Shown here piece by piece: positions 47,201 to 61,879 of a stretch of 64,000 nucleotides of DNA. This DNA is from Amphiscolops sp. MND2022 (lineage: Eukaryota). Below the pieces are notes generated by a model, which saw only the letters and a list, made by a program, of their open reading frames with translations, searched no databases and was not told where the DNA came from. The DNA lies in assembly GCA_964187785.1 (NCBI GenBank), contig OZ076409.1, positions 18,850,001-18,914,000 on the forward strand, given 5' to 3'. The position numbers and the translations under genes were made by a program. Position 1 is the stretch's first letter. Each line of letters opens with the position of its first letter.

Positions 47201-50200
47201 AAACCTTCATGTCTCGTGTCCAACAGGAAAAAGAAGATTGGATGCAATTCCTGGACGCATTAGAAGGTCTGCGCACCCAAGGTTTCCCAGATGAGCCTAT
47301 CACTACACGTCGTTATGAGATCCTGCAACGTTTTATAGATGGTGTCAATGATCCGACGCTGCGACAAGAGTTGGCCGTGGTATACGCTGCAGAGGCATAT
47401 CTGACCGAACCACCAACTGTAGAATCCCTAAGGTTCACCACGAGACAATTGCAACGGCATCGCCCAAACACGTCAAAACCTTACGACCCAAGGTATGCAA
47501 TGAGATCGAGGCCTCATCCTTTCGTGCCAGGAAAATTGATTCATCCAGCACCAGGCCTACCGCAAAACGTACTACCTCCTAACCAAGGACAACGAGAGGC
47601 TAAACCCCAAATGGCTCCACCAGCCCCTGCATCAGTAAAACAGGCTCCTGCACAACAGCAACCAGCGAGAGTGGTTCCCCAGGGAGCATGCTTCAACTGT
47701 GGGCTACCAGGTCACTTTGCAAGGGAATGCCCAAGTCGAGACCTAGCAAGGAAACCAGCGGCTCGCGCTGCACCTGAAGAGCGAGTAAACTTATGTGAGA
47801 ATAATGTGGCCTCTGCATGTTCTGGCCCCGTATTCTGTGTAAATTGTGGCATGACTGAACACTCTGCATCACAATGCCAAAATGTTCCAGTACATGAGGA
47901 TTTGGCCTACAGCCTCTGGGCTGAACAGCCACCTGCTTCTCAAACAATGAGTGACAGTGAAATGGTACTTATGCTTCGTCCTGCTGAAACCGCTCATGTG
48001 GCAACGCCCCTTACCGTCACATGTGGCAAGATTCAAATCCAGACGAACCCGGAGCCAACTACTTTTGATCCCTCGGGACGCACTATCATGTCTGTCCGAT
48101 TACTATTGGCGATTGAGAGGGAAACCCGCCCAGAACTCACCATAGACGCCCTGATAGACGAGATAACCGCAAACGAGAATTGCCGACAATTGACCCTGCC
48201 CCAACCGGAAGAATGGCAGGTAAAAGGTGTCACTTCGACGTATCATGCCTATTCTCCGATTCCAGTCAAAGTTTGCATAGATGGTGTTGACATGCGTTTT
48301 GGTGCCACTATCATTACTGACGCATTTCCTCCTGGAATCTGCTTGGGACCACAGGAGCTGCGCTGCTATAACATTGATGCTCAAGAACCAACTGGTGAAG
48401 CGAGAATCGATGAGCGTGCGTCGCTCGTAGTTTCATTCGTGGTTCCCGATGCTGCTCCCGTGCCATTACGTGGTCTGATAGACACTGGATCAGGAGTGTC
48501 CATCCTCACCTTCTCAGCCTACAATCGAGTCGCTGTGCGCACTGGGACACTCTTACGACCTTATGGTATTGACTTGTATGCCGCGAATGGGAAAACGATC
48601 AAAACTTTTGGTCTAGCGGAGAAAGTCAAGTTCCAATTGGGAGGCTACGAACTGGAAACTAACTTCGTGGTAGTTGACGACGCCATGGGAGTGGAAGACT
48701 TCCTCCTGGGCAGAAACTTCCTAAGAGCTTATCAAGTCTTGGTGGATCTAACCGCGATGAAGGTCATTGTCCGAGCTCCGTCTGAACCAGTGTGGTACCA
48801 TGCCCACACACAAGTAAGTAACGAATCACTCAATTCGTCGGTAGCGATTGCACAGGACGTAGTGTTGCAACCTTTTGAACGCGCAATACTACGCGCTAAA
48901 CTGCTTGTAGACAACTTAGAACCTTTCATATTTCGAACCGTGCTAATCAATTTCCAAACACCTAACCGAATGTTAAAAAACGCCATCTTTTTAGAGGACA
49001 CCGTGGCGACCGTGGGGGAGACTGGCTTCCTTTACGTCAGTTTAGGAAATTTTACCAGCAACGTGCAGCGGATTAAAAAGGGCACCCTTTTAGGAACCGC
49101 GGTACCCGTAACGATGGTTCACAAAGCCATCCCCCAAATTGTCCCCGGACAATCAAGTGAAACTCAGCAGTCAAATGCAAATTATGTTTGTAAAGTTTAC
49201 GAACAGATGAACCTTGACTCCTCTTCTGAATATAGTTCTTCATCTGAATTTGAGTTTTTGTCCTCTACCGAACCGTCAGAACTAGGCTTGTCCGAGCGCG
49301 AAGTAAAAAAACGAACCGATCCGGCGTTAATGGCTCCGATACCGGGCCCGGAAGCACAACTCGACGAAGTGCGCGGTTTGTGGGGATCGACCGCCAGCGA
49401 CACGCTTAGTAAACTTTTGAATGAATTTGATGATTTGTTTATGAAATTCAAAGCCGATATTGGTAAGTGTAAAATCGCCAAGCACCCGGTGGAAGTAGAG
49501 CCAGGGGCTGTACCCCACCGTGAAGGTGCAAGACGAATGTCGCCTGACAAGGCAGAACGTGCAAACCAAGAAGTCCGTGACCTGCTAGCTTTGGGAATGA
49601 TACAGCCTTCTCTATCCCCTTGGGCGAGTGGAATCGTCATGGTCAAAAAGAAGAGTGGTGAATTGCGATTCTGTTGTGACTTTCGACCACTTAATGAAGT
49701 GACCATCAAAGACGCTTATCCCTTGCCACGTATCGATGAAAGTCTATCCAGATTGGGCAAAGCCAAAATCTATACTAGTATTGACTTGGCATGGGCATTC
49801 TGGCAAATTCCTGTCCGAAAAGCAGATCGTCAAAAGACTGCCTTCGCTTGTGAACTTGGGTTATTTGAGTGGCGGCGTATGCCTTTTGGTATGTGTAACG
49901 TATCAGCAACATTTCAACGGGCAATAGCGCGAGCGCTACAAAGAATAGTGAACCGTGAAGGAAGTATGGTTATGGCCTACATCGATGACATTGTGATTGC
50001 TACCGAGACCATCGAGGATCACATGGATAGACTACGCGAAGTATTCCAATGCCTGCATGAGGCCGGGTTCAAAATGAGAGTCTCCAAGTGTGACTTCATG
50101 AAATCGGAGATCAAATATTTGGGCCGGGTCGTATCCGCAGATGGTATCAAGCCAGATCCAAAAGCTGTCACCAAGCTGAAAGAATGGGATATCCCGCGAA

Positions 50201-53200
50201 CCAAAACTGAATTGCAAAGTTTCTTGGGTTTTGCCAACTACTATCGGGATTTTATCCCATGGCATGCAAAACTAGTTGCCCCTTTACACGCGATAACGGG
50301 AGGAGCCTCTTCATTTTTATGGGGGGAGGAGCAGCAGCGAGCCTTCAACAGCATCAAAGTGGCACTAATGGAAGCCACCGCTCTGGCGCAACCTGACACT
50401 GAAGGCGAATTTGTTCTCGACACGGATGCTAGTGGTGTAGCTATATCGGGTATTCTGCACCAATGGCAAGGACCACCTGAGAGTCGCAAACTGCGACCGA
50501 TTGTATTCGGAAGCAAAAAATTAACTGCTACGCAAGCAAAGTATGGAGCCCCAAAATTGGAAATGTATGCTGCATACTATTTCATCTTGAAAAACCACAG
50601 TTACCTCTGTCCACGAAAGTTCACACTGAGGGTAGATAATCAGGCCCTATCCTGGCTAAAAACATATTCGATGGATCAGGCGATTATCGGTCGATGGATT
50701 ATGGCTCTTGAAAAATATCACTTCAGCATTGAGCATCGACCCAGAACGCAACATCGAAATGCTGATGGTCTTAGCAAACGAACAAATGATTACAAAAAAC
50801 ACGAAAAGCAACTAAAAGGCTTACCCGCAATTGCAGACAAATGGGATTTCCTGTCACAGGAGGAATATAACAAACTCCCGCTAGCCCCATGGTTCGACGT
50901 CCACGGACGCGTGATACCAAATCATCCAGAATTGCCTGCACACTTGCAGAGGTTGGGTAGCCAAAGTTCACCCGAGACCACAGTTGCCGCTCCCTCGCGA
51001 AAGAGCGGAGGAAGCAAACGAAATGCAACCATACGCGAGGAAGCCATGAGAGCGCCTCTACCTACATTGCCAAAACCAGAATTGACACTGCCCGCCGAAC
51101 TTTATCCAGAATATCCTGAGGATTGGTTAGAACTGACCGAGGAATATCAACGAGACTATCTACTCCCCACGCATGCTGCTAACGTACCATCAAGAACCAC
51201 TTACCCACTAATGGAAAAGCAAGCAACTAGCACTGCACCAGAGCACGTAAAACAAGCCGCGTTTGTGGTAAACAGCATATCAATGGAACTGCATGAACAT
51301 GCTAACACAGTCCATGGATTGAAGGATCTACTACTAGCACAAAACCGTGACGTCCATATATTGGCCATCAAGAAATTGGTAATGCAAGAATCAATAGATA
51401 ATGACGTCTTTCCGGAAAATGTGCGCACCTTTGCCAAAAACTACCACAAACAGAAGAAGAACCTCCTACTGATAAACGCCAACGGGATTTTGTGTGTAAA
51501 ATACTCCAAAACTCAAAGAGCTTTGCATGAACGCCCCTGTATGATAGTGATGCCACAATTGTATCAGCATGAGATACTATTCAAGGCCCACGACGCGATG
51601 GGACATCAGGGCATCGCGAAAGTCTTGGCCAGAATTCAAGAGCGCCACACTTGGCCAGGCATCCGCCGCACCATTGGACAATACGTCAGTCAATGTATCA
51701 CTTGTCAACAAGTACGCGACAAGCCTGGTGATGTACGCTTTCACTTGAAAAATATCCAAAGCGGTTATTTCAACGAGCTAGTCCAATATGACCACATGAA
51801 AATTTGTCCCTCTGATGATGGTAACACAGGGATATTGGTTATTATCGATCATTTCTCTAAGCTCGCAGAAGCTGTGCCATGTAACCACGATGAGTACGAT
51901 GCAGCGACCACTTCAAAGTTGTTGTTGCAGAAGTGGTTTGCCCGCCATGGAACGCCAACGAGGATGCAGTCAGACAATGCTCCCAATTTCACCGCGGCAG
52001 TATCTGCTGAGTTTATGAAAGCAGCCCAAGTGACCAAAGTAACCTCAACTGCTGGCCACCCCAGGACTCAAGGGTTGGTAGAACGACAAAACCGAACGCT
52101 ACTCACCCTACTGCGTGTATTCTGCTCTAGACGAATGCGTGACTGGGATCAGTACCTAGATGAAGTTATGGGTGCATACAACTCCACACGTCATGCCACT
52201 ACTGGATTTTCCCCGTATATGCTGACCAGAGGCATGGAAAAAGCTATACCCCTGACTTTTTTGTATCCGGAATTTGCAACTCAGTCATTCGAATCACACG
52301 AAGCCTATGTGGAACATGTGCTGGCTCGACAACAAGAGATTCATGACTTAGTCCGTCGCAACACGCATCAAGCCCAACAACGACAAAAATTGAAGTACGA
52401 CAGAGCAATTCGTGCTAAGGCCTACGAAGTGGGCGAACCTGTTTGGGTATTCTGCCGATACATTCCTCAAAAGGGATCTCCCAAATTGATGAGAGCGTGG
52501 CGTGGTCCTCACAAGGTAGCACGAGTGCTACAAGAGGGACGTGTTTACATACTTGACACTGGGCAGAAAGTGCATTTCGAACGATTGAAACCGCATCATG
52601 GTGGTCCAACAGAATGGGCAGCTGTTCCTGCGCATAACGGCGAGGTTGCTATTATCATGGACCCTGATCCAGAACAATCCCATGAGGAGGTGAGAGACGA
52701 TGCTTCACAACCTTCTTACCGTGCAGAGGAACCAATTTCAGAAGCCAGTGATGCCTCTTTGCCTTCTCGACAAAGACATTGGATGGACACACGGTTACGC
52801 ACACACATGCGCGCAGGTGGCAGCCGCCTACATTATCAACAATTTGGCTACTCTTCGACTGAGTCTGACGATGAACGTTCTGATGTACTCCTATCGAGTG
52901 CTCAAACAAATCCTGACGAAAGTGTCATCTTGCCATCACAAGTAGACGAGCCTGCGCCTATTCCCGAAATGCCAATATCACCACTACCTGCTATGGAGGC
53001 TCTATTTTCAGAGAATGAAGCAGTACCAGACGCATTAGATGTCGCCCCGAATCCTAATATCCACGTACCCACCGAAAGTGCCGCTACTTCTTTGACCGGT
53101 ACATCCGCCCCATTATTGACAAATCCATCTCTTACGAATATGTTGAGTAACTTTCCCATTTGGCCCCTAATCGATGACAATGACCTCAACCCAACCCTGG

Positions 53201-56200
53201 ACAACGATGGTGCTGACACACCAACGACCAATAACGAAAAGGGATCAATTCCCCCTGCAACAAATCCCATCAACAATGATGCAGCTACTACCACGAAGCT
53301 CCCCAATGCTCCTAGAGGGCGTGGACCCCGGGGACGTCCGCCAGGCAGAGCAAGGCCGCGAGCCTCGCTACCACGTGGTCACCAACGGAGAGGTGCTATT
53401 AGAGGCACTCGCAAAAGAGGCCGTCCCAGAGGTAGACCTCCTCGTACAACGCACGCCAGACCTAACACTCCTACCCATATTCGTAACACTCCATCAATGG
53501 ACACTGACTCTTCTGCCCCTAGCGCGGCGGTTACCTCAGATCAGGCAGCACCACCAGAATCGACCAACGCTCATTATGGACTGCGACGCAATCGTATTCC
53601 CAGATATCGTTGCGGAACATGTGGCCTACGAAACTGCGAATGTAACTACATGGTCCACGCGGGCTTCCCAATCGAATCCCAGGGAGTCCTACTAGCACGT
53701 GAACAGGAGAAACCACTTCCGAGCGGAATGGTTGACCGTTTGGTTATTCGAGCCGAGAAAACCTACACTGGGCTACAACGCAGTGACACTCCATATCCCG
53801 TGGACTATATCCTATCCAAAATGAAAGATTCTACGATAGCAAGGGCTCCGTGCCCAAGGTTCAAGGAGTGGACCTATGATCTTGTTGGTTTGGAGTTCAC
53901 CTTACCCATCACTGTTCCCCCTTTGCCTACAAATATTGCTTTTGGTCCTTTCAACTATGAGCGAGAGCCTATCCAAATGATACGCTGTATTCCTGCTGAC
54001 CTCTTGTACGACAAATACAACGTCACAGCAAAACCAGGAGACGTTTATCAGCCTACAAGCAACTGGTGGCTACTAGTTACGGCCAAACAAGCATCCGACT
54101 TGGTTCATCCCACTAACTTGAACACCTGTCTGGAGAGTTTGCGGACGATGGCCTCTCCTGATAAAATCACTTGTTTCCACACGATAGACCTATATCGTGG
54201 TAAAATTAAGTTTGAATGGTGGCTGGAACTTATTATAGCAGTTTTATCAAATTTCTCACGAATCAGATTCCTGGACGAATGGACACACTCATTTCCTAGT
54301 CCTGTATCCCTCCAATCGGCCCTGCACGCACTGGATACATGGTCCAGGGCTAACATTGATAATCAATCATTGCCGCGATCTGTATGGCAAGATTTGGGCG
54401 CAATCAAGGGCCTCCTCCCGAATGCATGTGACGATGCTCTTTCCAAGGACCCCGGACGAGAGTTAGTGTATCATGGAGCCGCGAGACCTCAATTGGTTGA
54501 CTATGTGCAGTATGCCAATACGGACTTCCTGCAGACTCCCCATCATATCGTTTTATGTTGTCCCGCAAATCTGGAAACTAGTTCTGCCGCTCTTCGTTAC
54601 GTCATTCGTGAGCATGGTGCAGATGCAATCTTTCAACTTCGACCGGAGGTTGGCAATATTGTAACGCTACCCACATCTTTGATAGACGGCCATCCTCAGA
54701 CTATCCACCTTCTAATCACACGAGCTACACCTCGCTGCCCCATGCTTGCTGATATTCTCTTTGGATGTCTTGATCATTTGAAAACGTTACTCGAGCGCTT
54801 GGAGGCGATAGAAGTACACTTTGCCATCGTCGATCCTGAGCGCCCAATACGTAATCTTTTTGATTTTTATGCCTGTTTGATGGACGTATTCGCCGACACC
54901 CCCCTGACCGTCGTTCTTCACGATCGCGTTTACGTATCTATTGCAAGCGTCGCTAGCTTTCCGTAAAACTTTCGTTTGTCCGCTTTCTTTTTTTTTGTTT
55001 TTCGTTTTTTTTTGTCCGCTCGATTAAGTTTAGTGAATCGATACGAAGTTTATTTGAGACTATTACGTTATCTTTTTCTTTAATGTTAATGTGTAACATT
55101 CTATTACTTTCCCTGGTATTACCCTTAAATGACCTATGGTGTTACCCTACTATCAAGTGTGCTACAATCGACCTACGCTCTTTCAGAACTGTCGTCATGA
55201 ACCAAGATAATGATAGAAGCAACAACGTCCCGCCGAGGTCTACAGACAACTCTCCTGCCTTGGGGCAACGCGTCTATGACACTGCGCGTGTCCAACGCAC
55301 CCCACAAATTGCCTTTATTCGAGACAGACTCGACCAAGGTCTGTCGCCAGCTGCAGTGGCCGGGGTAGCAGCAATAATTGCCCAGATGGAATCACAATTG
55401 CAAGCCCCAATGCTAACGATATCAATTACCTCAGGGTTTCCTGGATTTCAACGATCCATGACGTACCAAGATGGAGTGTGGCACGGCCATGATCTTACGC
55501 ATCACTTCACAGATGATCGTGCGGCGATCTCGTATAGTCTTGCGAATGGCGGAGTCCACCAGACTAGACCTTTACAGATCCCTTCTTGCCCGCCTCCACC
55601 TCCACCGCCACCTCCTGTACCAACACCACAAGCAGTAGTGCGCGCGCGCACTCCTGCTCCTATGGTGCCTAGCCTGCCCAATCAATCTATGGCGGAGCAA
55701 GCAGTCATTTCAGCGCTACAAGCAGTGGCTGCCAATCCCAATTACGATGACTTCATGCGATCCATGGAGCAGTGTTGGCCAGAGCTACGTCGAATTGCTC
55801 TGCCCACTGTCACTATTCGTAACGACAATGCGACTTCAACTGAAACACGTCAAGGTGTCATCACTATTCCCCACATCAATCCTCAGTCTGAACAGCCAGG
55901 ACACTCTCGCACCGTGACTGTGGAACGCAGTCGTTCGCCTTCCCGCTCTTCTCAAAAGGGGGGAGGAGAGAGCCGCCCTGCCTCCAGAAAGCGCAACGAC
56001 CCCTCCCCAACAAAGAAGACTCAACAACCATTGACTGCCCGTGACAGCCCCTCGAGCAAGCCACCACCCGACAAAAAGATTTCCAACGAGAAGGCCACAA
56101 CCTCCAAAGCGCCAGACCAAACGAAGTCAAAAGTGTCGGAAGCATGCGTGCTTCCCTCACCCCAATCACAACCGGACGTGACAGGCGAGCAACAAGGACT

Positions 56201-59200
56201 GCCGCAACCACCATCCACGCAGTCTACAACACGCGAGTCGCTGGCTCAACGAGCGACTCCTAAGCCCTCCACGTCAGGACAGCCACAATCGGAGCAAACT
56301 GTGGGTTATCAAGGCACCCCTGTATCCCAGCGAACTGTCAAGGACATAATGGGTGATTACCCAGGGTTGAAAGTGACCAACAGTGGTCCAACTGGAACCC
56401 CACTCCGGAAACAGGCGATTCAACATCCAACTAAGAGGACCTTTACGAAACAGCCGACGTACCTGAGTCCCATGCAGAACACAAAGGGCACATTGGTCAC
56501 CAAGGATTCCCGACGTATCTGGGAATCGGCAGTTATAGTATCGCCCGAATGGCTATTTGAGAAAAACATGTGTCCTCCAAATGACGAAGAGCACGCGAAA
56601 CTGAAGAAGGCAAATGTACCCGTATTCATGAATCGTCCAATCCGCCCAGACCACACTCCTACCAATGAGCCGCCATGGCTAGGGAAGGCAATGAATATGC
56701 TGCCAAACGTGGATGACAATTACCTAGATGCCCTCAACGTTGACCTTCGTGGGCAATTCGCCGATCGATATTTCCTCAACGCTGGAGAGACCTTTGAGAT
56801 CAACCCACGGTACGCCCGTGATCTCGAAGCCCAGCTACCAATGCCAAAAGAAAGGTTGCAGCGTGCGCGCTTCGCCTTACTTATTGACTCAACATTCCTC
56901 AAGAATGTCCCCATCGACAACGTGTTGTCAGACGTGATGGTTTTTACTCTACCGCTGTCACGTATTCCCGAGATGGCCGAAGTGTTGGTCACCATGTTTG
57001 ACCCTGAGATGACAGGAACCTTCAAAGAGCCACCTCCACGTAGAGTGATCATCAGCAACGTTTTCGATCACATGGCCTGTGAAGGACTAATGGCCCAGAT
57101 CGCGAACGTTGAGATTATGAATCCAAGTCCGGCTCAGCGAACAACGGTACGCAATGCAGCATTGAACATGGCCCGAGCCATGGAAAAAGCCCAAAACATC
57201 TTGAAAGACAAACTCAAGGTGCCAGCCCTGTTCGTGACACCCCCAGGTTTTTGCCAATGGCCCCCCGCCTTGCAGAGATTCATATACATGGTGACAGAAG
57301 TTTGCAAGTGCAGAGAAATAGACTTTGCGATCTGCGCGCCCAATATGCGGATTAGCTCCAATGACTTTCGCCCCTCCTGGCTGTCCTACATGGGGTACAT
57401 TGCCTCAGTGTCTAAAGTGCTACAGTCAGTAGAGAAAACAGGGAACGCGCAGCTGACAATCGACGATGCCATTTACTTTGATCACGGCACTCGCATGGGC
57501 TTGTTGGTGTTCAACAAGGACGGAGAAAGGCGAGTCCCAGAGCCCAGTACGGCCGAATGCGAGGCAATCCGCCTGAATAACTGGATAGAGCGCGCGCGCT
57601 CATCCGGTGGAAAGACTTGTATCAAAACCGATCTTGCAGAAGTCACTGCCACAATGAGCAAAGTCCCCAGCGACCGAGAAGTAGAACGAGCCATCCCGCG
57701 AGTTCAATTTGCCAAGGACCTCACAATCGATCAATTATCAGTGGGAATGAAGTACATTGCTGCTAAATTGACGAGCGAAACTCAGGCTGAAATCCAAGCC
57801 TTCAGCAGCACCTACGACGCCTGGTACCAGCGGCTACAAACTACCACCGTAGCAGACATTGCAAAAGAGCTTGGGATGTCAACCGACCAGTTTGCCATCT
57901 GTTTGGGATTGGGTTGGAGTCCCGATGTTATTCGAGTCGAGTTCGATTTAGAGGAGAGTTGGTTGATCGAAATCAGCGAGATTATCGGTACCGTGCAGGT
58001 GAACGAACTCTTTGCACTGATGCTCACTTTCGGGCAGAAACGCTTTGTAGCTGGCCCAATGATGATATTGACTGACCTGGTTACCGAGTGTAATCTGGAA
58101 TGGCTATTTTCATATCTGGTGATTGCACGAGGGAATATCTCAGGTCTAACCGCCCTAGCCAAGCTGTTGCAACGGAAAGACGCTCAGGATTATCCCGCTC
58201 ACCTGGAGCGTATGACAACTTCATTGTATCACTGGATGTATTGCAGTCTGGTCTTTGCCTCAGGACTCTTCGTGGGGGTGGATAAGCACCAACCGTTATA
58301 TGATGGACGTCAGCTAGTGACCGAGGTAGCTGGATTTTTGACACCCAACCAGCTGGCAGATTTCACTTTGGCTGAAGTCGAAGATCTTATACCGGTGTTA
58401 GCACCCGTGCTAACTCCGATATTTGGCCCAACCGGGATACTCCGATACCCCACCAAGCCTCTGAGACTGGCCTCGGAGACGTTAACGGTATCCATCCTAA
58501 CTTATCTGAAGAACGTAAAACCACACAACTATCAACAGATGCTTGAACGTGGGCTGTTTCTGCTAGTACCACGTATGTATACCACAATAAAGAATGAGAC
58601 ACAGAAAGACGAAAACCTGGCCGGTATTCTCAAAGCCCGAACAAAGAAGGCGTGCCCTTTACCTCGCGAATACGGCCCGGTGAATTGGTATAATTCTCCC
58701 CTAGACCACCTCGGAATCCCACAGCGATTCAATTGGAGTTTCGCACACCTCAGGAAGTACGTGACCGAGTGTGTGCAAACCATGGGCGGTCACACGAATC
58801 AGGAGTACAATTTCCAAATGATTAAGCTTCCAGCCAGGTACTGGCGAGGACCCATCGGTTATATCCGGGCCAAGCCAATCAGTATGGTCGAGAAGGGCTT
58901 TGATGAGCAGTATGCCTATCGCGACCACTACAAACTTGGCGTGTGGATGTCAAGAACCCTGGAGGAGCGCCAAGGACGCCTAAGAGGTTTAATCCTCCCC
59001 CCACTGACAATGCCTGTTTGGAATCCAGAGGCGAGGGTTACTATGGGAAGCGACATGCCAGCGGAGACTTGCTACCACGTCATGGAATTGCTAAGTGATC
59101 CCCTCGGACCCGAATGGGAAGCCTCTAGGCAAATCATAGAGCATGCGAATAGGGACAACTGGTCCAGAGCCTGCGGGCTCTGGGGCCGACCTGATCTACG

Positions 59201-61879
59201 CCCGAAACTCAGTGCGAAACAGAAACGACCCATTGCCACCCGCAATAGACCGCTGGATCTACCGCACTTGTTTAATGCTAGTAGACTGGATGTACAGATC
59301 CCAATCTCCACATCAACCACAAGTTCTGCCAATGTTAGCGGCTCAGCCAATGCAGCGCAAGAACATTCGCCAGAAGCATCAACTCCGGTAGCCGCAGAAA
59401 ATGGCCCTGGTGGCTCAAACACGGCTCCTAGGACCCATGAAACTGCCAGCGCAGAAACAAAGCCAGTCCTGCGAGGAGGAAATACGCGAAGAGGATCTCT
59501 GTCTGAACTGCAACCAAAGGCAGACGTTTCCCCCAGAGCGCGTCACTCCTCTGCCACCCAGTAAAACAGAACTAACTTTGTCGTCATTCAATTTCCAACT
59601 TCAATAGTCTTATGCTAGATAAAATTTTGCGGAATCTCATGGTTTCAATCTCTGTTGTTGCTAAGCTTCGATTATGGAAATGCCAATTGGTCATGGGTAA
59701 AAATCTCCGAGTGGAGATGAAGCCCCCGGGCTTCATCTTCCTTGTTATTCCGTTTTGGGACCGGCAACCCAACCATGAAACTGCGTTCTTGCCTTGCCTT
59801 AGTTAGATGCAATATTCAATTTGCAATTTGTGTTTGCAGTTAGTGCTTTTTCATGCTACTTCATGCTACAGGTGGATGCGCTGTGCGCACTCCGTGCTCT
59901 AAATTTTCGGTGCTATTACACCATTTTAGTTGCTAGTTATCGTTTACACTGTTGCCACTGTCGAAAAAGATAAAAAGAAAAGATAAAGGAAAAGGAAACA
60001 AGGAGGGAGAGATGAGAAATGAATAGAATAAAAAGATTGATGAACCTCGACCATTGTTTTTCTTGAGCTGCCTGATAGGATCGAGAGTAAGTCTCGCAAA
60101 AGAAATTTTAAATTGACCGTACTAATTAATTGATTTTATGGCAACTGCTTACCAAAAGAACTTTTATCAAACGCCAAGCAGTGCGAAGCTCCCGAGCTTC
60201 GGAAAATATGTTTCGAACAGTCATGTGATGGTCGTTGACCTTAAAACAAGTTTTAACGCTAACGGCAAATAAAAACTTTTTTTTGAATGGCCGAAAAGAA
60301 ATTTTAACGCCTGAATTGCTCACGACAGGCTACAAAAAGCAATGACTTTGCCGTATAAGATTTGTGTACAAAGTTGTATTGATTTGATCAAAATGCAGCA
60401 ACGCTGGGTCAAAAATACTTCCACGAGGCCAATTTGACGATGTCTCGATGAACCGTCCAGCGCTATTTGATGTGCACTCTACCTCCTCAGTGGGGCACAG
60501 ATGACTCTGGGTACAGACTCAATGACGCCAACCCACACTTGACGGGGACGTCAAGACTAGACCCCGGGGAGTGTATGTAGCGACTACCTATCGAGTGCAC
60601 GATTTCGAAAATTTCGATGAAAATTTCGTTCAAGGGACTATATCTCCTCTACTAAAGAGTCATATTCCGCCAGACGGCAGCGTGTCTTTATTCAAGTACC
60701 TGTCCACGGAATTGAAGAGGATTTGAGCAAGAGACTCGAGAGAGACCCCAACCGAACGAGAAGATTGCAGAAAAACACGGCCACTATCAGAAAAAGACTC
60801 AAATTTCTGCCAAAACGGACTGAACTTTGTTCTAACCAGTGCTTTCTTCAGCGAAGCGTTACAAGACGCTGTGATTACCAAAAATGAGTCAATTAGCTTG
60901 ACCAAGCATCCGTGCTTGTGTCCCCGGCTAATTGCTGCCTCAAAAGTGCTAATTATGTAGTAATTTTCGTATTTTCTTGTTGTAACAGCTCGTGAGCTAC
61001 TCATTTCAATCTCCTGTGTAACTTCGATAAAACTTGATTTTTCCTTTCCACCACTTGCATTTTTTAAAGGCTGTCTAAGTGTTGATTTCGAAGAAAAAGC
61101 GTAATGCGCACTACTGATAGCAATTACAGACTGGATCAGGCCGGCGAGCACTTCACAAGAAGCGGAATCCTCCTCTGACGGGACAGTTTTTACCCGAAAG
61201 AGGCAAAATGAGCTCATGGTCATGGGCGCCTGTCCCGGGCAAATACCCATATCATGTGTTCCTCTAACTCTTATGGTTACGGCGACAATGGTGAGAGCTT
61301 GTCGTTACAGTATCGCGATTAGCTACGTTCACATACCAATAGTGCTTTAAATGCAGAAAACGCCTAAAGCGAAGCGGGGCGACGTGCCACTACTGATCTA
61401 GCGGCTGGTTTCGACGACTGGTTTTTTTAGGAGATTTTAACTTGGGAGATTTTGACATATCCACTTTTGACGGTCCACTTTTCATGCAGCCTATAAAGAT
61501 GAATTTATTGAACAAAAAGGCAGAGAAAGGCTTCAATTTTTTCATGGGCATTTTTTTTTAAAATTCAGAGAAGCAATGTTTCTATTTAACTCCTTTTCTG
61601 AAAGAAATCGAAATCAATCAAAGTCATGAAAAACTTACATGCATTAATGAGCAAAGATGACATTCTTACCAGACGGTCGTCCACACCAGTAGGAGCGTTT
61701 CAAAAAGAAGAGCGGATGTTGGGCTATCCCGAATGTGCCGGGGAACACGTTGTCGAAGTACCAAGTCAGAATTAGGTACACGAAGCCGGAAACAAGTTGA
61801 CCAGTGAAAACCTGAGTCAAGGTCAGACTATCGTCGTAAGCTCTCTCAGTGTTGAAGCTGGAGCCCGAAACGCCGATGC
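2072..61879 (-). CDS. ABCA3: ABCA-subfamily lipid transporter, ABCA3-like (partial, 17 exons in window; orthology not established)
   Basis: Spliced frame is continuous across all exons: Walker [10 protein letters not shown]-loop CPQHDVLFD, signature LSGGMKRK, Walker [13 protein letters not shown]-loop [16 protein letters not shown], and TMD2 motifs [12 protein letters not shown] and KAKHIQ-MVSGV. The gene extends beyond both window ends. Confidence 0.92.
3046..3530 (+). repeat. Truncated 5' LTR (lacks the last ~300 bp and the PBS)
   Basis: Identity with the 3' LTR stops at TCTTCTTCAC and the sequence jumps into leader. Confidence 0.85.
3640..6100 (+). repeat. Degenerate ~180-bp monomer array in three ~720-bp higher-order repeats
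   Basis: Anchor motifs at 4007, 4189, 4366, 4540, 4726, 4909, 5088, 5261, 5446, 5633, 5812, 5988; every fourth monomer is most similar. Confidence 0.75.
6358..7236 (+). CDS. Putative AT-hook protein (three RRGRPP motifs) inside the non-autonomous element
   Basis: 292-codon ORF (first ATG about 6385); [16 protein letters not shown] and HRRGRPPN are in one frame; AATAAA at ~7472. Confidence 0.45.
   Translation: MQGETLLAQMQINISDAVESEPLTPPTKDMGVDPTSLDTTTICIALCIAETLAEDHADDNGLRERNHHSSDTKNERISISPSTSLSQDSVSNSHFPGTKSLISTTKLLPSLLKDSFEPHSAERGLQDFIQVDPPVFINWLPGGSAKTRPTGHRRGRPPRTDCEHSWKKILLSLYDGRRRGRPPRQVLPWSLRPKGHRRGRPPNNYSSLETDPVSKIFFIEFPDASCLLHVLLLLDGDVYPVRTTLHFFSRGRRCRQRLMFTAAFLCQAFNFVHSSLSLCERGCSTTKARGVN
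8326..9113 (+). repeat. Complete 3' LTR (788 bp)
   Basis: TG...CA ends with a perfect 14-bp terminal inverted repeat TGTAACGGCAAGCT / AGCTTGCCGTTACA. Confidence 0.85.
9800..9917 (-). CDS. ABCA exon ([15 protein letters not shown]...[11 protein letters not shown]), GC donor
   Basis: Acceptor tgttttag; donor CAG/GCAAGT; phase 2 to 0, joining MVSGV. Confidence 0.88.
10012..10023 (-). CDS. Putative 12-nt ABCA microexon (AGAAATCGAAAG)
   Basis: Acceptor ttttttttttcag and donor AAG/GTAATT; phase 2-2, frame preserving. Confidence 0.6.
10448..10652 (-). CDS. ABCA exon (GASFTQEDG...[12 protein letters not shown]...NHPL...DQG)
   Basis: Acceptor ttccacag, donor gtatgt; phase 1 to 2. Confidence 0.9.
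10675..10904 (+). mobile_element. Short Helentron/DINE-like non-autonomous repeat with an internal tRNA-derived segment
   Basis: Starts AACAAGACGCCCG and ends hairpin + GGGCGGAAAATAATAA, the same termini as 12284-13242. Confidence 0.55.
10723..10795 (-). pseudogene. tRNA-derived (SINE-head-like) sequence
   Basis: Minus strand has A box TGGTGCAGTTGG and B box GGTTCGAACCC; acceptor and anticodon arms are imperfect. Confidence 0.6.
11471..11575 (-). CDS. ABCA exon (QHTYPDTS...EYVAHWIIG)
   Basis: Acceptor tttttttcag, donor gtgagt; phase 1 to 1. Confidence 0.82.
12284..13242 (+). mobile_element. Helentron/DINE-like non-autonomous repeat with four ~180-bp internal subunits
   Basis: Subterminal inverted repeat ATTTTCCGCCC / GGGCGGAAAAT, 3' hairpin CCCATATGAAATATGGG; near-identical inverted copy at 34128-34909. 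Superfamily is inferred from structure only. Confidence 0.7.
13737..14245. mobile_element. Mutator/Foldback-like MITE with repetitive TIRs (AAAACAACTCGTCG units)
   Basis: 9-bp TSD GTCGTAAAG at 13728-13736 and 14246-14254; long inverted arms. Confidence 0.75.
14251..14791. repeat. Second copy of the 17-bp-unit foldback element, opposite orientation
   Basis: Same units and reverse-complemented core AATTAGCTGATCAATTAAAC; terminal GTCACCCAACC. Confidence 0.8.
14857..14986 (-). CDS. ABCA exon ([19 protein letters not shown]...YKEKTG)
   Basis: Acceptor ttctgtttag, donor CAG/gtactc; phase 0 to 1, bridging the neighbouring exons. Confidence 0.82.
15213..15450. mobile_element. Degenerate MITE (GTCAAAATCTC / GGAGATTTTGAC termini)
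   Basis: Shares GATTAGCTACGTTCACATAC (reverse strand) and termini with the MITE interrupted by the giant LTR element. Confidence 0.6.
16449..17004 (+). mobile_element. Helentron/DINE-like repeat, family 2 (diverged)
   Basis: 5' GGAAC..CCCAAGTCGGC and 3' CTATAGTCGG...AAAAGCGCCGATTAAAA match the units at 19308-21812. Confidence 0.55.
18600..18760 (-). CDS. ABCA exon (start of TMD2: [18 protein letters not shown]...LLALLSA)
   Basis: Acceptor ttttccag, donor gtaagc; phase 1 to 0. Confidence 0.92.
19308..21812 (+). mobile_element. Head-to-tail cluster of Helentron/DINE-like family 2 units
   Basis: Recurrent 5' AACAAGNCGGGAACGTCTAAAGTCGGCGC and 3' CTGTAATAGTCGGGC...AAAAGCGCCGACTAAAA; internal AAGGGGGACCCTTT motifs; duplicated 3' ends. 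Confidence 0.7.
21890..22020 (-). CDS. ABCA exon (inter-half linker, ANSMTIDNG...FSTVK)
   Basis: Acceptor tgtttgcag, donor gtaaga; phase 2 to 1. Confidence 0.8.
23779..23883 (-). CDS. ABCA exon ([10 protein letters not shown]...PAAP)
   Basis: Acceptor tttcccag, donor CAG/gtaatt; phase 2 to 2, continuing EEVFM-RVG. Confidence 0.85.
24510..24716 (-). repeat. 3' LTR of the Mag-like element
   Basis: Direct repeat of 30328-30534; preceded on the minus strand by PPT AAAGGGGGGAA (24717-24727). Confidence 0.95.
25047..30314 (-). CDS. Gag-Pol polyprotein (two zinc knuckles, PR IDSGS, RT WLDD, RNase H, integrase)
   Basis: Open ORF; first ATG after the PBS is at 30314 (MSQKNE); [28 protein letters not shown]...CIPC, LDFIGP/TDKG/VER. 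Confidence 0.93.
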   Translation of the reverse strand: MSQKNETNPIEVSSRNSSSEESGEKKGRSTTHQKITLPIFEKKTIQEAKLWWRRFIQYVKMTQKIDLNRMTTDKEIIEEYREELEIKIKDIFIWALGEEAVTEMTKTVRDNDPNKMNINQLYSLFRLHFIPERNKFHSRADFFGIVREPSETAEDVWTRILQTEKNCEFDNVTPAELIASKFLSIIGRSTGDYELKKKIRKSNMTIETITDLIHEYMYDRLNDSNNSNDGRNVKHVQERPQKRKWSEKSSYERNKKRPEYQKQKYKDNRCGQCGAPNWSRQHVCPARTVECRNCKKKGHYEKMCRLPKRIQYVDKISSSAEEDNWDYNKIQSINNKKKKDFFHATLLVNDVPIKFIIDSGSPVTLIPQKLFKGTSEVTKLNTNYKDVNDNKIEFRGQTLATVKTNNTTLQLPLLITKANITPLMGLDWMNRLGIALNTTTEDVKIHNIKLDETQKKILKLKNEFKDLFYNNTEIKNLSVKINLKADAKIIQQKGRPVPIHLQEQVANEIKRLIKNGYLERATEITEICFVSPAVITVKKDKSIKIALDSRKLNEATIKRKAQMPNMEELISRISRKISEEKEGEIWLTKLDFDYAYGQIKLDDETKNLCIFTITGGEFTGYYRFLKGFYGLADIPTIFQERIDKTLEFKHPAWLDDIIIVTKGTIDKHEAEVKETMENLEKAGYRLHPNKCEFFKQETEWIGHRIDQNGIRPLQDKLEAITKIEIPKNEKELKSFLGAIQYLAKYIENLSAQTDILRKLLKKQNEWNWTQEHTKAFNNLKKLITQLPCLAHYNTDNENILTTDASTKGLGATLWQKQKDGNLKPIGFASRFLSDTEKKYAINELELLAVVWGFEHFRLYIYGKPIELLTDHQALEPLIKRNRSNKTYSARLTRWLDRLAHFDINIKHVAGKHLTLTDYLSRNPVAKPVPIENYDEEYVINCIIPLLEFINTHGSISDEKKATMQTENNTAKQNNNQSQTRSVNKQPLTINQINERKPFQTLQTSEPIDSHHKFDHRSINMDIKTIESIEKDDPSEDTLRLTSRWREITKPGDYRFTQGQWRKYAPPRTLRAELKRIEVDLWQRRNRLIWQKMEKNSKETPEEVARKKEFHRVIEKIRNLPKRDEAGPSSSNTQQQQPQYEEESINVDQRDETETMSSDSDQTIAVPAINFKRYLGATSVRYIQMGTASKVQYEDKWDLEETVRQAEQKFSTDLRTIADETTNDEKLLKTLVCLERRNFEQIPEEYKQYKNNLSTRFGVVFYDDKIVIPKPLRQTVIMLLHKGHPAINKMSHAARPFWWPKLTKDIQTKCNECIPCKMSGKSIKPQLPMTEINYLPPAEKPNQEIQLDFIGPIRFKHRRFYILISIDRYSRWPAACICEAPNSKTAKNFLEQYIVLNGIPQTIRTDKGTAFTGREFRQTCKNLNIKPIYGTPYIHTATGLVERGIKTLKDLMRTNLQDKCNLNEALYQALMVMRMTVHSTTKESPFERHYGRKPRTELTNYLNLPTGNNEYISAQPETLQVYSFNNGKGGYDQLIMKTPRKLKCDVSNNFPYKFLEKRQTKNKFESEYQTKPQTAVAGTKHTITTDTNKVIHRKLASKPLPNSFQNPLSRRGENRRGIDGRFIQMSLPSLETEDTDEEETQSEGEKESTPVAETSTEQMEEEFEFTPPTPIRRGEPQSPGAGNLKLHVENMNEQQLEQALETINENPTTTTIIDNNGNENYIKTEINEITNTSERSSNNNQPIFKNFRRSSEDLQD
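30318..30327 (-). promoter_or_regulatory. Primer binding site, tRNA-Ser-like
   Basis: TGGCGCAGTC immediately after the 5' LTR; complementary to the 3' end GACUGCGCCA of invertebrate tRNA-Ser as I recall it. Confidence 0.7.
30328..30534 (-). repeat. 5' LTR of the Mag-like element
   Basis: Direct repeat of 24510-24716. Confidence 0.95.
30554..30644 (-). CDS. ABCA exon ([29 protein letters not shown])
   Basis: Acceptor catttaag, donor gtaaca; phase 1 to 2. Confidence 0.92.
30804..30962 (-). CDS. ABCA exon (GVGYHM...GAELSFRLP...NFP, regulatory domain 1)
   Basis: Acceptor ctctgtag, donor gtaagt; phase 1 to 1. Confidence 0.92.
31654..31864 (-). CDS. ABCA exon (Walker B, D-loop, H-loop of NBD1)
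   Basis: [13 protein letters not shown]...[18 protein letters not shown]; acceptor gttaaag, donor gttaga; phase 0 to 1. Confidence 0.95.
33530..33689 (-). CDS. ABCA exon (signature [12 protein letters not shown])
   Basis: Acceptor gcgtacag, donor gtagtt; phase 2 to 0. Confidence 0.95.
34128..34909 (-). mobile_element. Inverted copy of the 12284-13242 repeat with three internal subunits
   Basis: Reverse complement nearly identical to 12284-13242 but about 178 bp shorter. Confidence 0.75.
35837..36135. repeat. Spacer-less ~299-bp near-perfect palindrome
   Basis: Arms of 150 and 149 bp centred on AGAGCTG|CAGCTCT (35986/35987); about 4 mismatches and 1 indel seen. Confidence 0.92.
36168..36321 (-). 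CDS. ABCA exon (GLYEPTSG...[18 protein letters not shown])
   Basis: Acceptor tcttcag, donor CAG/gtccga; phase 1 to 2. Confidence 0.93.
38042..38327 (+). repeat. 29-bp minisatellite, ~10 copies (CCGTGTATTATCAGCCCACTTAGGCTCAA)
   Basis: Direct tandem units without spacers. Confidence 0.92.
38776..40760. mobile_element. Possible Kolobok-like non-autonomous DNA transposon
   Basis: TTAA on both sides (38772-38775, 40761-40764); imperfect purine-starting TIRs GGGGAGGTGTTG / AGGGGAGTGTGG; no ORF. Confidence 0.4.
40821..40941 (-). CDS. ABCA exon (Walker [13 protein letters not shown])
   Basis: Acceptor gattgtag, donor gtaaca; phase 0 to 1. Confidence 0.95.
41413..41537 (-). CDS. ABCA exon (GGNNKEG...[19 protein letters not shown])
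   Basis: Acceptor tgttcag, donor gtcagc; phase 1 to 0. Confidence 0.9.
41631..42009. mobile_element. hAT-type MITE (379 bp)
   Basis: 8-bp TSD GTATCAGG (41623-41630, 42010-42017); TIRs TAGAGGTTTATCGGACA / TAGAGGTGCACCGGACA; internal TCCGG repeats. Confidence 0.85.
42076..42809 (+). repeat. 5' LTR of the giant element
   Basis: TGTAGCGAC...GTCGTTACA; direct repeat of 60576-61309. Confidence 0.95.
42826..42843 (+). promoter_or_regulatory. Primer binding site, tRNA-Arg-like
   Basis: TGGCGACCACAGAGGGAT resembles the complement of the tRNA-Arg(TCG) 3' end (TGGCGACCACGAAGGGA, from memory); 16 nt downstream of the LTR end. Confidence 0.7.
45199..54966 (+). CDS. Gag-Pol polyprotein with a long C-terminal extension (AT-hooks, Cys cluster, two macrodomain-like units)
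   Basis: CCHC knuckles at 47689 and 47836; PR LIDTGSG at 48481; RT YIDD at 49978; RNase H DTDAS...ADGLS at 50419-50775; IN HHCC and D,D,E at 51588-52083; GPY/F-like WRGPHKV at 52498; no stops. The true start codon is uncertain. Confidence 0.95.
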   Translation: MKPNSLRNLWISITRTLGRANTQRRSNHSRGGRKDISRCTETSKTPDPTGCETNLSAISDLTSDPKEEDWPTDDSFIMEPDFSDPMSDDASEEYQAKPVAKTTDDIGGSADETGSQAHTSKWLQELTKVAVTPFGTDEAGTWPNSNRTNAEEETEMSCLNATGQLKAPSVASESTANTAEILQQMSYVGGMNYAKTRLQEATAPRASGKGKQVRPPALLAQTGTTGPHGDSRSSSPSSKAASARSSAYRAVHEAAKARKALLDAQIGVKQAASQLSERKARCDREHQSIMEEIEAVQTELRTSTERQAQGHEIQAARMDAMGYRMAEIKDMVTEREVRMEAQLQEVCSQIQAMGTMLKNIQPQPAPVSNTIKELLQDTNISLPKPMKSVSLKPKESVTISTIPSGSKQHLARYAPLPQTLVSNGEAASTSTKFIPSAVSTKNIPPTTKTHKKEPTCEVITIDTSSMGISDLREPTRANVLTEVTSTFQTANATLGESAAEFQTANDELPSGNPCASSTRRREVTLPENTDDSVNSTRGSSIPPPAISEETPISPEQLRFTEAISKAMSKELAPLIANRDKTRVRPTVYKGTKDGSVDGWLPVMKRFLERVHAKSPKIDRAWAIIDHLEGEARNYIINKSEPERDEPDKVFSLLASRFGTGGNRMHVRQTFMSRVQQEKEDWMQFLDALEGLRTQGFPDEPITTRRYEILQRFIDGVNDPTLRQELAVVYAAEAYLTEPPTVESLRFTTRQLQRHRPNTSKPYDPRYAMRSRPHPFVPGKLIHPAPGLPQNVLPPNQGQREAKPQMAPPAPASVKQAPAQQQPARVVPQGACFNCGLPGHFARECPSRDLARKPAARAAPEERVNLCENNVASACSGPVFCVNCGMTEHSASQCQNVPVHEDLAYSLWAEQPPASQTMSDSEMVLMLRPAETAHVATPLTVTCGKIQIQTNPEPTTFDPSGRTIMSVRLLLAIERETRPELTIDALIDEITANENCRQLTLPQPEEWQVKGVTSTYHAYSPIPVKVCIDGVDMRFGATIITDAFPPGICLGPQELRCYNIDAQEPTGEARIDERASLVVSFVVPDAAPVPLRGLIDTGSGVSILTFSAYNRVAVRTGTLLRPYGIDLYAANGKTIKTFGLAEKVKFQLGGYELETNFVVVDDAMGVEDFLLGRNFLRAYQVLVDLTAMKVIVRAPSEPVWYHAHTQVSNESLNSSVAIAQDVVLQPFERAILRAKLLVDNLEPFIFRTVLINFQTPNRMLKNAIFLEDTVATVGETGFLYVSLGNFTSNVQRIKKGTLLGTAVPVTMVHKAIPQIVPGQSSETQQSNANYVCKVYEQMNLDSSSEYSSSSEFEFLSSTEPSELGLSEREVKKRTDPALMAPIPGPEAQLDEVRGLWGSTASDTLSKLLNEFDDLFMKFKADIGKCKIAKHPVEVEPGAVPHREGARRMSPDKAERANQEVRDLLALGMIQPSLSPWASGIVMVKKKSGELRFCCDFRPLNEVTIKDAYPLPRIDESLSRLGKAKIYTSIDLAWAFWQIPVRKADRQKTAFACELGLFEWRRMPFGMCNVSATFQRAIARALQRIVNREGSMVMAYIDDIVIATETIEDHMDRLREVFQCLHEAGFKMRVSKCDFMKSEIKYLGRVVSADGIKPDPKAVTKLKEWDIPRTKTELQSFLGFANYYRDFIPWHAKLVAPLHAITGGASSFLWGEEQQRAFNSIKVALMEATALAQPDTEGEFVLDTDASGVAISGILHQWQGPPESRKLRPIVFGSKKLTATQAKYGAPKLEMYAAYYFILKNHSYLCPRKFTLRVDNQALSWLKTYSMDQAIIGRWIMALEKYHFSIEHRPRTQHRNADGLSKRTNDYKKHEKQLKGLPAIADKWDFLSQEEYNKLPLAPWFDVHGRVIPNHPELPAHLQRLGSQSSPETTVAAPSRKSGGSKRNATIREEAMRAPLPTLPKPELTLPAELYPEYPEDWLELTEEYQRDYLLPTHAANVPSRTTYPLMEKQATSTAPEHVKQAAFVVNSISMELHEHANTVHGLKDLLLAQNRDVHILAIKKLVMQESIDNDVFPENVRTFAKNYHKQKKNLLLINANGILCVKYSKTQRALHERPCMIVMPQLYQHEILFKAHDAMGHQGIAKVLARIQERHTWPGIRRTIGQYVSQCITCQQVRDKPGDVRFHLKNIQSGYFNELVQYDHMKICPSDDGNTGILVIIDHFSKLAEAVPCNHDEYDAATTSKLLLQKWFARHGTPTRMQSDNAPNFTAAVSAEFMKAAQVTKVTSTAGHPRTQGLVERQNRTLLTLLRVFCSRRMRDWDQYLDEVMGAYNSTRHATTGFSPYMLTRGMEKAIPLTFLYPEFATQSFESHEAYVEHVLARQQEIHDLVRRNTHQAQQRQKLKYDRAIRAKAYEVGEPVWVFCRYIPQKGSPKLMRAWRGPHKVARVLQEGRVYILDTGQKVHFERLKPHHGGPTEWAAVPAHNGEVAIIMDPDPEQSHEEVRDDASQPSYRAEEPISEASDASLPSRQRHWMDTRLRTHMRAGGSRLHYQQFGYSSTESDDERSDVLLSSAQTNPDESVILPSQVDEPAPIPEMPISPLPAMEALFSENEAVPDALDVAPNPNIHVPTESAATSLTGTSAPLLTNPSLTNMLSNFPIWPLIDDNDLNPTLDNDGADTPTTNNEKGSIPPATNPINNDAATTTKLPNAPRGRGPRGRPPGRARPRASLPRGHQRRGAIRGTRKRGRPRGRPPRTTHARPNTPTHIRNTPSMDTDSSAPSAAVTSDQAAPPESTNAHYGLRRNRIPRYRCGTCGLRNCECNYMVHAGFPIESQGVLLAREQEKPLPSGMVDRLVIRAEKTYTGLQRSDTPYPVDYILSKMKDSTIARAPCPRFKEWTYDLVGLEFTLPITVPPLPTNIAFGPFNYEREPIQMIRCIPADLLYDKYNVTAKPGDVYQPTSNWWLLVTAKQASDLVHPTNLNTCLESLRTMASPDKITCFHTIDLYRGKIKFEWWLELIIAVLSNFSRIRFLDEWTHSFPSPVSLQSALHALDTWSRANIDNQSLPRSVWQDLGAIKGLLPNACDDALSKDPGRELVYHGAARPQLVDYVQYANTDFLQTPHHIVLCCPANLETSSAALRYVIREHGADAIFQLRPEVGNIVTLPTSLIDGHPQTIHLLITRATPRCPMLADILFGCLDHLKTLLERLEAIEVHFAIVDPERPIRNLFDFYACLMDVFADTPLTVVLHDRVYVSIASVASFP
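55197..59564 (+). CDS. ORF2 of the giant element: unknown protein with an SGNH/GDSL-like domain
   Basis: Uninterrupted ORF (open from 55083; ATG at 55197 follows the acceptor-like CTCTTTCAG at 55186); Pro/Ser-rich disordered N-terminal part; SGNH-like block pattern at 56865-57425. Confidence 0.85.
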   Translation: MNQDNDRSNNVPPRSTDNSPALGQRVYDTARVQRTPQIAFIRDRLDQGLSPAAVAGVAAIIAQMESQLQAPMLTISITSGFPGFQRSMTYQDGVWHGHDLTHHFTDDRAAISYSLANGGVHQTRPLQIPSCPPPPPPPPPVPTPQAVVRARTPAPMVPSLPNQSMAEQAVISALQAVAANPNYDDFMRSMEQCWPELRRIALPTVTIRNDNATSTETRQGVITIPHINPQSEQPGHSRTVTVERSRSPSRSSQKGGGESRPASRKRNDPSPTKKTQQPLTARDSPSSKPPPDKKISNEKATTSKAPDQTKSKVSEACVLPSPQSQPDVTGEQQGLPQPPSTQSTTRESLAQRATPKPSTSGQPQSEQTVGYQGTPVSQRTVKDIMGDYPGLKVTNSGPTGTPLRKQAIQHPTKRTFTKQPTYLSPMQNTKGTLVTKDSRRIWESAVIVSPEWLFEKNMCPPNDEEHAKLKKANVPVFMNRPIRPDHTPTNEPPWLGKAMNMLPNVDDNYLDALNVDLRGQFADRYFLNAGETFEINPRYARDLEAQLPMPKERLQRARFALLIDSTFLKNVPIDNVLSDVMVFTLPLSRIPEMAEVLVTMFDPEMTGTFKEPPPRRVIISNVFDHMACEGLMAQIANVEIMNPSPAQRTTVRNAALNMARAMEKAQNILKDKLKVPALFVTPPGFCQWPPALQRFIYMVTEVCKCREIDFAICAPNMRISSNDFRPSWLSYMGYIASVSKVLQSVEKTGNAQLTIDDAIYFDHGTRMGLLVFNKDGERRVPEPSTAECEAIRLNNWIERARSSGGKTCIKTDLAEVTATMSKVPSDREVERAIPRVQFAKDLTIDQLSVGMKYIAAKLTSETQAEIQAFSSTYDAWYQRLQTTTVADIAKELGMSTDQFAICLGLGWSPDVIRVEFDLEESWLIEISEIIGTVQVNELFALMLTFGQKRFVAGPMMILTDLVTECNLEWLFSYLVIARGNISGLTALAKLLQRKDAQDYPAHLERMTTSLYHWMYCSLVFASGLFVGVDKHQPLYDGRQLVTEVAGFLTPNQLADFTLAEVEDLIPVLAPVLTPIFGPTGILRYPTKPLRLASETLTVSILTYLKNVKPHNYQQMLERGLFLLVPRMYTTIKNETQKDENLAGILKARTKKACPLPREYGPVNWYNSPLDHLGIPQRFNWSFAHLRKYVTECVQTMGGHTNQEYNFQMIKLPARYWRGPIGYIRAKPISMVEKGFDEQYAYRDHYKLGVWMSRTLEERQGRLRGLILPPLTMPVWNPEARVTMGSDMPAETCYHVMELLSDPLGPEWEASRQIIEHANRDNWSRACGLWGRPDLRPKLSAKQKRPIATRNRPLDLPHLFNASRLDVQIPISTSTTSSANVSGSANAAQEHSPEASTPVAAENGPGGSNTAPRTHETASAETKPVLRGGNTRRGSLSELQPKADVSPRARHSSATQ
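60541..60575 (+). promoter_or_regulatory. PPT-like region
   Basis: GACGGGGACGTCA...CCCCGGGGAGTGTA directly before the 3' LTR; conserved at 8292-8325. Confidence 0.65.
60576..61309 (+). repeat. 3' LTR of the giant element
   Basis: Direct repeat of 42076-42809 at an 18,500-bp offset. Confidence 0.95.
61670..61879 (-). CDS. ABCA exon (end of TMD1: [28 protein letters not shown])
   Basis: Acceptor gttttcag, donor gtaaga; phase 1 to 1. Confidence 0.93.

Follow-up and report, generated by a model that had tools for sequence, protein, structure and literature searches.

A predicted tandem of pocket-altered TARG1-class macrodomains at the C terminus of a Ty3/gypsy Gag-Pol polyprotein

Human TARG1 (OARD1, C6orf130; 4J5Q, 4J5R, 4J5S, 2L8R) is a minimal macro fold of the ALC1-like class, a fold that normally removes ADP-ribose tags, and the best match, in both profile and structure comparisons, of two domains found at the end of a retrotransposon polyprotein from Amphiscolops sp. 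MND2022. The catalytic dyad of TARG1 has been attributed to Lys84 and residue 125 (PMC7050489, where residue 125 is given as Glu; the TARG1 chain has Asp). The TARG1 mutants G43E, I44E and G123E are reported to be inactive and not to bind ADP-ribose, G123E still binding RNA (PMC5928194). Since SCO6735, a hydrolase of the TARG1 class, is described as active without either catalytic residue (PMC7050489), the loss of the dyad is no proof of inactivity. Tandem macro folds within a polyprotein are known from SUD-N/SUD-M (Mac2/Mac3) of SARS coronavirus, which are reported to have been repurposed and not to bind ADP-ribose (2W2G; PMC2674928). A macro domain has also been recorded in the LTR retroelements known as fish epsilon-like endogenous retroviruses (Basta et al. 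2009, via PMC4977317), and chromovirus integrases such as that of MAGGY likewise carry an extra folded domain, the chromodomain, at their C terminus (bioRxiv 10.1101/2021.11.30.470311).

The locus studied here lies in a window of 64,000 nucleotides (contig OZ076409.1, positions 18,850,001 to 18,914,000; all coordinates below are those of the window). Its two units are 13-19% identical to human TARG1, their phosphate loops and Lys/Asp dyad are changed and, unlike TARG1, they stand in tandem and are fused to a retrotransposon polyprotein. SUD-N/SUD-M differ from the pair in belonging to another macro class, in presenting a basic Lys patch for G-quadruplexes and in adjoining an active Mac1 (PMC2674928); no active macro domain was found within the window element. 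The fish elements are retroviruses whose macro proteins are described as additional ORFs, unlike the Pol-terminal pair (PMC4977317), and the MAGGY chromodomain has an unrelated fold. Macro domains in LTR elements are already known, and the new part is the conserved, pocket-remodelled tandem. A search of the full-text literature, with subscription journals and Repbase reports outside its scope, found no paper in which TARG1-type domains of gypsy elements are described as tandem or degenerate, and the available parts of the chromatin-evolution preprint and of the bdelloid LTR paper PMC5408684 make no mention of macro fusions.

The retrotransposon and its copies

The pair closes the single Gag-Pol ORF of the element (45088..54966, forward strand, 3292 aa stop to stop). 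The domains follow each other as zinc knuckle, protease, reverse transcriptase, RNase H, integrase, a long tail and the macro pair, the gag-PR-RT-RH-IN part being assigned by Pfam, and this order is that of a Ty3/gypsy LTR retrotransposon. The element is likewise bounded by direct TG...CA LTRs (5' LTR, 42076..42809, 734 bp; 3' LTR, 60576..61309; both on the forward strand) without a mismatch between them over 734 positions, and by a target duplication, though one of only 3 bp, GTA (42073-42075 and 61310-61312). A stretch starting with TGG and resembling a primer-binding site in sequence is found at 42826..42843 (forward strand), 16 bases behind the 5' LTR; similar gaps occur in two sister families. 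The leader ahead of the first ATG is about 2.4 kb long (42810-45198). Nearly the whole LTR is covered by an antisense open frame of 214 aa (42160-42804 and 60660-61304, reverse strand), which has no Pfam match.

When the 1.07-Gb genome was searched with the second macro unit, all of the 150 scored matches (among 3506 first-look candidates) were 97-100% identical to it, and the 3292-aa frame was counted by eye in more than 40 of these. The family is recent, abundant and recently active. The nearest named proteins in a reverse transcriptase comparison are 33-38% identical, in a tree built without named reference elements. At least five tandem families are present in the genome: those whose frames measure 3292, 3193, about 3050 and 2999 aa, and that of the L074 type.

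LTR elements usually have target duplications of 4-6 bp. Three-bp duplications are found in 19 of the 21 LTR pairs of three tandem-macro families (loci L083-L112, L115-L116, L123-L124 and L128-L137): 12 of 13 pairs and one solo LTR in the window family, two of three pairs in the 3193-aa and 3050-aa families (three being found among six tried), and 5/5 in the 2999-aa family. None of the duplications of the lineage extends to 4 bp. This abundant lineage may therefore be missed or mis-trimmed by structure-based LTR finders set to longer duplications. Within the full-text literature, again with subscription journals and Repbase reports outside, no paper on 3-bp duplications of LTR elements was found; in the part of PMC10741241 that was available, 3 bp is given only for CACTA.

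The Gag-Pol ORF is followed by a second ORF (54957..59564, forward strand, 1535 aa stop to stop), conserved in sister families, whose globular middle is 31-44% identical between families. It has no Pfam match and no credible PDB match; its SGNH-esterase look, judged by eye, finds no Pfam or PDB support, and its PPR matches are repeat-sum artefacts. In the 2999-aa family the 3' LTR follows about 1.3 kb behind Pol, the second ORF is absent and the macro pair is present (5/5 copies), so that the pair needs no second ORF in cis.

Two other elements lie in the window. The LTR element at 3046-8810 has no pol similarity; its LTR start and 3' end resemble those of a sister family, 580 bp are 76% like the 5' leader of the macro-pair element, and its ORF 6328-7236 contains three RRGRPP motifs. 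It is likely a non-autonomous relative. The element at 24510-30535 (reverse strand) is an unrelated intact gypsy with a 1770-aa ORF, 208-bp LTRs, a 5-bp duplication, a strong A-rich skew and a weak NUDIX match between RNase H and integrase (E 0.0075, below the cut-off).

Fold, pocket and conservation of the terminal units

A preliminary description, made by eye, had placed tandem TARG1/OARD1-like macrodomains at the C terminus of Pol, and the motifs it quoted are all in frame within the ORF 45088-54966. This assignment is borne out by the predicted models, in which both units, within the last 345 residues of the polyprotein, are of the TARG1 class (AlphaFold2, Foldseek and VIA). The region had been taken to begin at 53950; it stands, with the start of unit 1 moved slightly upstream to about 53932. 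Unit 1 (53932..54279, 116 aa) is joined to the complete unit 2 (54493..54927, 145 aa) by a conserved linker (54280..54492; all on the forward strand) with two predicted helices and several conserved Trp (WSRANIDN...RSVWQD).

No Pfam family matched the terminal region at E<=1, and Pfam Macro matched none of 121 homologues at E<=0.1, so that the macro resemblance needed profile and fold tests; domains of this kind, being invisible to Pfam, have probably been missed in annotation. A PDB search with the single sequence returned nothing significant. A homologue search among cluster representatives found 253 sequences, and 120 of the best 150 were aligned with the window protein; the resulting 121-row profile matched only TARG1/OARD1 chains in the PDB (5/5 matches, E 0.022-0.032). 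The AlphaFold2 model of the pair (mean pLDDT 83, whole-model pTM 0.55) has TARG1 as its first Foldseek match (E 4.9e-9), and TARG1 is the top match of each unit. Unit 2 aligns with TARG1 over 137 residues (VIA Z 18.6, rmsd 2.0), followed by DarG, SCO6735 and Poa1p. Unit 1, modelled alone (pLDDT 87), also has TARG1 on top (Foldseek E 2.2e-6, TM 0.66-0.71; VIA Z 13.0, rmsd 2.4, 114 residues). Both predicted structures are thus of the ALC1-like/TARG1-class fold, closest to TARG1/DarG. Aligned with one another, the trimmed profiles of unit 1 and unit 2 give an hhalign probability of 94.0, with a score reached by 0/40 shuffles. Against the profile of 21 canonical element macrodomains (see below) unit 2 reaches a probability of 97.0 and unit 1 one of 62; the match of unit 1 to one such domain is weak (33). 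In the ESM Atlas unit 2 falls near viral clusters (0.90-0.91), one of them with Macro on 14% of its members. A Mab-21/OAS assignment of unit 1 from the same source (below 0.9, low recognition) was dropped after the fold result.

The preliminary description had also read GAGIA, LITK and GCGLD of TARG1 as replaced by SSAAL, LITR and DPERP in unit 2, which the alignment confirms. Equivalences were taken from sequence-profile alignments, with TARG1 numbering from PDB chain alignments; the unit-2 homologues comprise 42 rows, with fewer per column as many are fragments. The position of Lys84 is occupied by Arg in 39/42 of them (Lys in 1/42), that of Gly121 by Asp (28/30), that of Gly123 by Glu (23/30) and that of Asp125 by Pro (19/30), otherwise by Ser, Gly or Leu, with no Asp among the listed states. 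Ser35 is replaced by Pro (31/35) and, in loop 1, Gly43 by Ala (31/35) and Ile44 by Ala, Thr, Val or Met. The window unit 2 itself has Arg, Asp, Glu and Pro at Lys84, Gly121, Gly123 and Asp125. In unit 1 a deletion of about 17-20 residues has removed loop 1 together with part of helix 1; the position of Lys84 is Ala or Ser (46/49), and loop 2 reads D-x-Y-R-G-K. By these alignments, of the features on which TARG1 hydrolysis is judged, Lys84, the loop-2 glycines (Gly121/Gly123) and loop 1 (Gly43/Ile44) are changed or lost in both units, and the acidic residue 125 in unit 2. Since the changes in unit 2 include a published binding null of TARG1 (Gly123Glu), the pair has likely lost ADP-ribose binding; the inactive or altered site proposed at the outset is supported by these changes and by the fold searches. 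The net charge has also changed, from a median of +10 in the canonical element macrodomains (21 rows) to about -4 in unit 2 (18 rows) and about 0 in unit 1 (30 rows), a change that speaks against a basic face that binds RNA or PAR.

Unit 1 had been thought more decayed than unit 2, a view that does not hold: unit 1 is remodelled, under strong purifying selection and above unit 2 in identity in 14/15 pairwise comparisons. Between sister families the units are 46-93% identical and dN/dS is 0.03-0.08 where dS is computable, silent sites being near or at saturation. Individual dN/dS values are 0.062/1.54 for unit 1 and 0.086/1.40 for unit 2 between L078 and L062, and 0.102/2.15 for unit 2 between the window element and L143. 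Within the family, 30 copies of unit 1 carry 19 silent and 14 replacement variants (ratio 0.21), and unit 2 carries 30 silent and no replacement variants, a count biased by the choice of copies by unit-2 identity. By these sequence comparisons both units are under purifying selection. Organisms other than this one also have the remodelled domain, since P0035 (both units), P0127 and P0270 have best matches in this genome, among the scored candidates, of only 34-35%, 34-35% and 44-56%.

Macrodomains of related elements and their history

A Macro search of the genome gave three matches in long element ORFs, one of which, used as query, led to 150/150 scored matches; the search also recovered a host macroH2A-like gene (L033), with a histone fold exon and a macro exon. 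Among 21 surveyed element loci the macrodomain stands at the end of Pol behind integrase in 19, between RNase H and integrase in one and behind protease in one. Lys84, Gly123 and Asp125 are kept in 18/21. The three exceptions (L040, L041 and L050, at the end of Pol) have lost all three residues and have Glu at 123; by sequence, their pocket loss is independent of that of the tandem lineage, so that the pocket has been lost at least twice. The canonical Ty3/gypsy domains (such as L037, L042, L044, L054, L055, P0286 and P0292) share the fold class and mostly the end-of-Pol position with the window pair, from which they differ in being single and basic, the pair being remodelled, acidic and tandem; the surveyed families with a canonical domain at the end of Pol are far from the window element in the reverse transcriptase tree. 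Weak dUTPase matches occur between protease and reverse transcriptase in L037 and L044 (E 0.003 and 0.03).

The gypsy family at L054:4959-9809 has the canonical domain between RNase H and integrase. L055:1716-4220 (reverse strand) is an 834-aa ORF made up of gag, protease and a canonical macrodomain, with no reverse transcriptase in the stretch fetched; it is multi-copy, about 20 rows of 833-837 aa being found among the scored matches. In L081:7081-8766, reverse transcriptase, RNase H and integrase are deleted and the post-protease region is joined in frame to a point just before unit 1. These two loci indicate that macro domains can persist apart from integrase.

The history of the pair was studied with an RT-RH-IN tree of 39 rows, drawn from the 120 nearest RT-integrase relatives after near-duplicates and multi-element fusions had been dropped, and with a tree of the macrodomains; both come from quick searches and have long branches, and the support in the RT-RH-IN tree is SH-aLRT only. 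The tandem clade, supported at 100, has P0275 and the P0270/P0276 group as its sister lineage (98 together), and P0289 comes next (99). P0286 and P0292 fall outside these groups, within a 22-row clade (95), and have a single near-canonical domain at the Pol C terminus in which the equivalents of the Lys, Gly123 and Asp125 are kept. P0270 and P0275 have the Arg and D-x-x-R, and P0276 has kept the Lys, its end being disrupted. The rows without a macrodomain inside these clades mostly have truncated tails; the outer rows P0290, P0293 and P0300, as well as P0303, gave no significant macro match in the profile scan, the macro-like look of the P0300 tail included. In the macro tree, 16 remodelled rows, both units among them, are split from nine canonical rows (100). 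P0275 may have an upstream macro remnant, albeit a weak one: the segment reaches a probability of 20-22 and a score of 28 against a shuffle maximum of 16, and it groups with unit 1 in the macro tree (94). A second upstream macrodomain in eight other outgroup segments did not rise above shuffles.

The reverse transcriptase tree thus presents a series from near-canonical single domains through remodelled single ones (P0270, P0289) to the tandem pair nested inside. The simplest reading of these sequences is that remodelling came first and duplication second. The ancestor would have had one working ADP-ribose eraser at the Pol C terminus; loop 2 would then have been rebuilt to the D-x-x-R motif, with the catalytic Lys changed to Arg, and the remodelled domain would later have been duplicated, its first copy losing loop 1. 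Within one genome, intact TARG1-type domains, single remodelled ones and remodelled tandems occur in different gypsy families, a natural series in which to study whether ADP-ribosylation serves hosts against retrotransposons and how a pseudo-enzyme arises from an eraser. The pair also parallels coronavirus Mac2/Mac3 and, its domains being small and well predicted, it can be directly expressed and tested.

Possible functions of the pair

Several hypotheses may explain why such a pair is kept. The key binding residues are lost yet the domains are strongly conserved, which points to a docking surface rather than an enzyme. We hold with moderate confidence that the two pocket-altered TARG1-class domains are pseudo-enzymes, which likely serve, without catalysis, as a docking module for proteins on the integrase tail. 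This low-complexity tail contains R-G-R-P motifs, which we take to be AT-hook-like (53320..53442), in six of seven aligned tails, the seventh being internally deleted; upstream of unit 1, a conserved C-x2-C-x4-C-x-C motif (53611..53643, both on the forward strand; 6/7 aligned tails) is a possible metal site. In this view the AT-hook-like motifs would hold DNA, and a protein of the host or of the element, bound by the acidic pair, would help the integration complex to reach or act on chromatin.

A counter-defence role apart from integrase is somewhat unlikely. The non-erasing pair, probably after release by the protease, would act as a decoy, binding a PARP, macro-PARP or silencing factor of the host and so blocking it. 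Across the many gypsy families of this genome that carry it, the canonical domain is found at three places (behind integrase, between RNase H and integrase, or behind protease), a sign that its role may not depend on position; between families, the divergence of unit 2 outpaces that of integrase (46-56% against 89-90% identity), and macro activity is reported to have been lost repeatedly at fronts between hosts and viruses (PMC10221186). Nevertheless, whole-domain dN/dS gives no sign of positive selection.

Alternatively, the pair could be an altered enzyme or ligand reader, in which the Arg and Asp of unit 2 bind or cut a different ADP-ribose-like substrate and unit 1 is a structural helper. 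Besides the pocket Arg (39/42) and the loop-2 Asp (28/30), unit 2 retains an Asp that presumably lies on the adenine side (26/31) and the equivalent of Asp37 (26/35), and the pocket Arg and Asp could form a new site together with the adenine-side Asp. The activity of SCO6735 without the dyad (PMC7050489) sets a precedent. Yet both glycine-rich phosphate loops are changed, the surface is acidic, unit 1 is devoid of loop 1 and the change of Gly123 to Glu is known to abolish binding (PMC5928194), all of which makes this explanation unlikely.

Nucleic-acid binding in the manner of SUD-N/SUD-M, with element RNA, cDNA or G-quadruplexes bound during packaging or integration, appears quite unlikely. 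SUD is also made of two macro folds that bind G-quadruplexes and not ADP-ribose (PMC2674928), TARG1 G123E keeps RNA binding (PMC5928194) and both units have several conserved Arg residues, but the SUD and G123E precedents use basic patches and the net charge of the pair is neutral or acidic. As SUD ranks far below TARG1 in the fold searches (Z 8.6 against 13.0), it can serve as an analogy only. A neutral relic carried at the end of Pol, which the heavy loss of canonical motifs and the lack of a Pfam match might suggest, is highly improbable, being refuted by a dN/dS of about 0.04-0.06, measured between families whose silent sites are saturated or nearly so, and by the retention of the pair in no fewer than five families of this genome as well as in proteins of other genomes.

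Protein binding at the integrase tail is therefore favored over the three other functions, given the motifs of the tail, the neutral or acidic charge and the presence of the pair in elements devoid of the second ORF. More tentatively, an anti-ADP-ribosylation enzyme may have been turned into a new integrase accessory, with the disarmed and duplicated pair, AT-hooks and cysteine cluster as a new kind of tether to chromatin or trap for host factors; the integrase of this clade would also cut with an unusual 3-bp stagger. The preliminary idea of a targeting domain in the position of the chromodomain is unproven: no Chromo domain matched the polyprotein in Pfam at E<=1, the pair lies about 550 residues behind the integrase core, which sets it apart from the chromodomain of MAGGY, and related macrodomains occur elsewhere in Pol or without integrase. 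At the chromosome scale the copies do not cluster either: 141 of them, on the 13 large contigs to which the test was restricted (nine copies on small contigs were dropped), are uniform in position and number along the 13 chromosomes (KS p 0.25 and 0.75), with no centromere-style clustering. Pairs of copies less than 100 kb apart are marginally in excess, five being observed against 2.0 expected (p 0.048).
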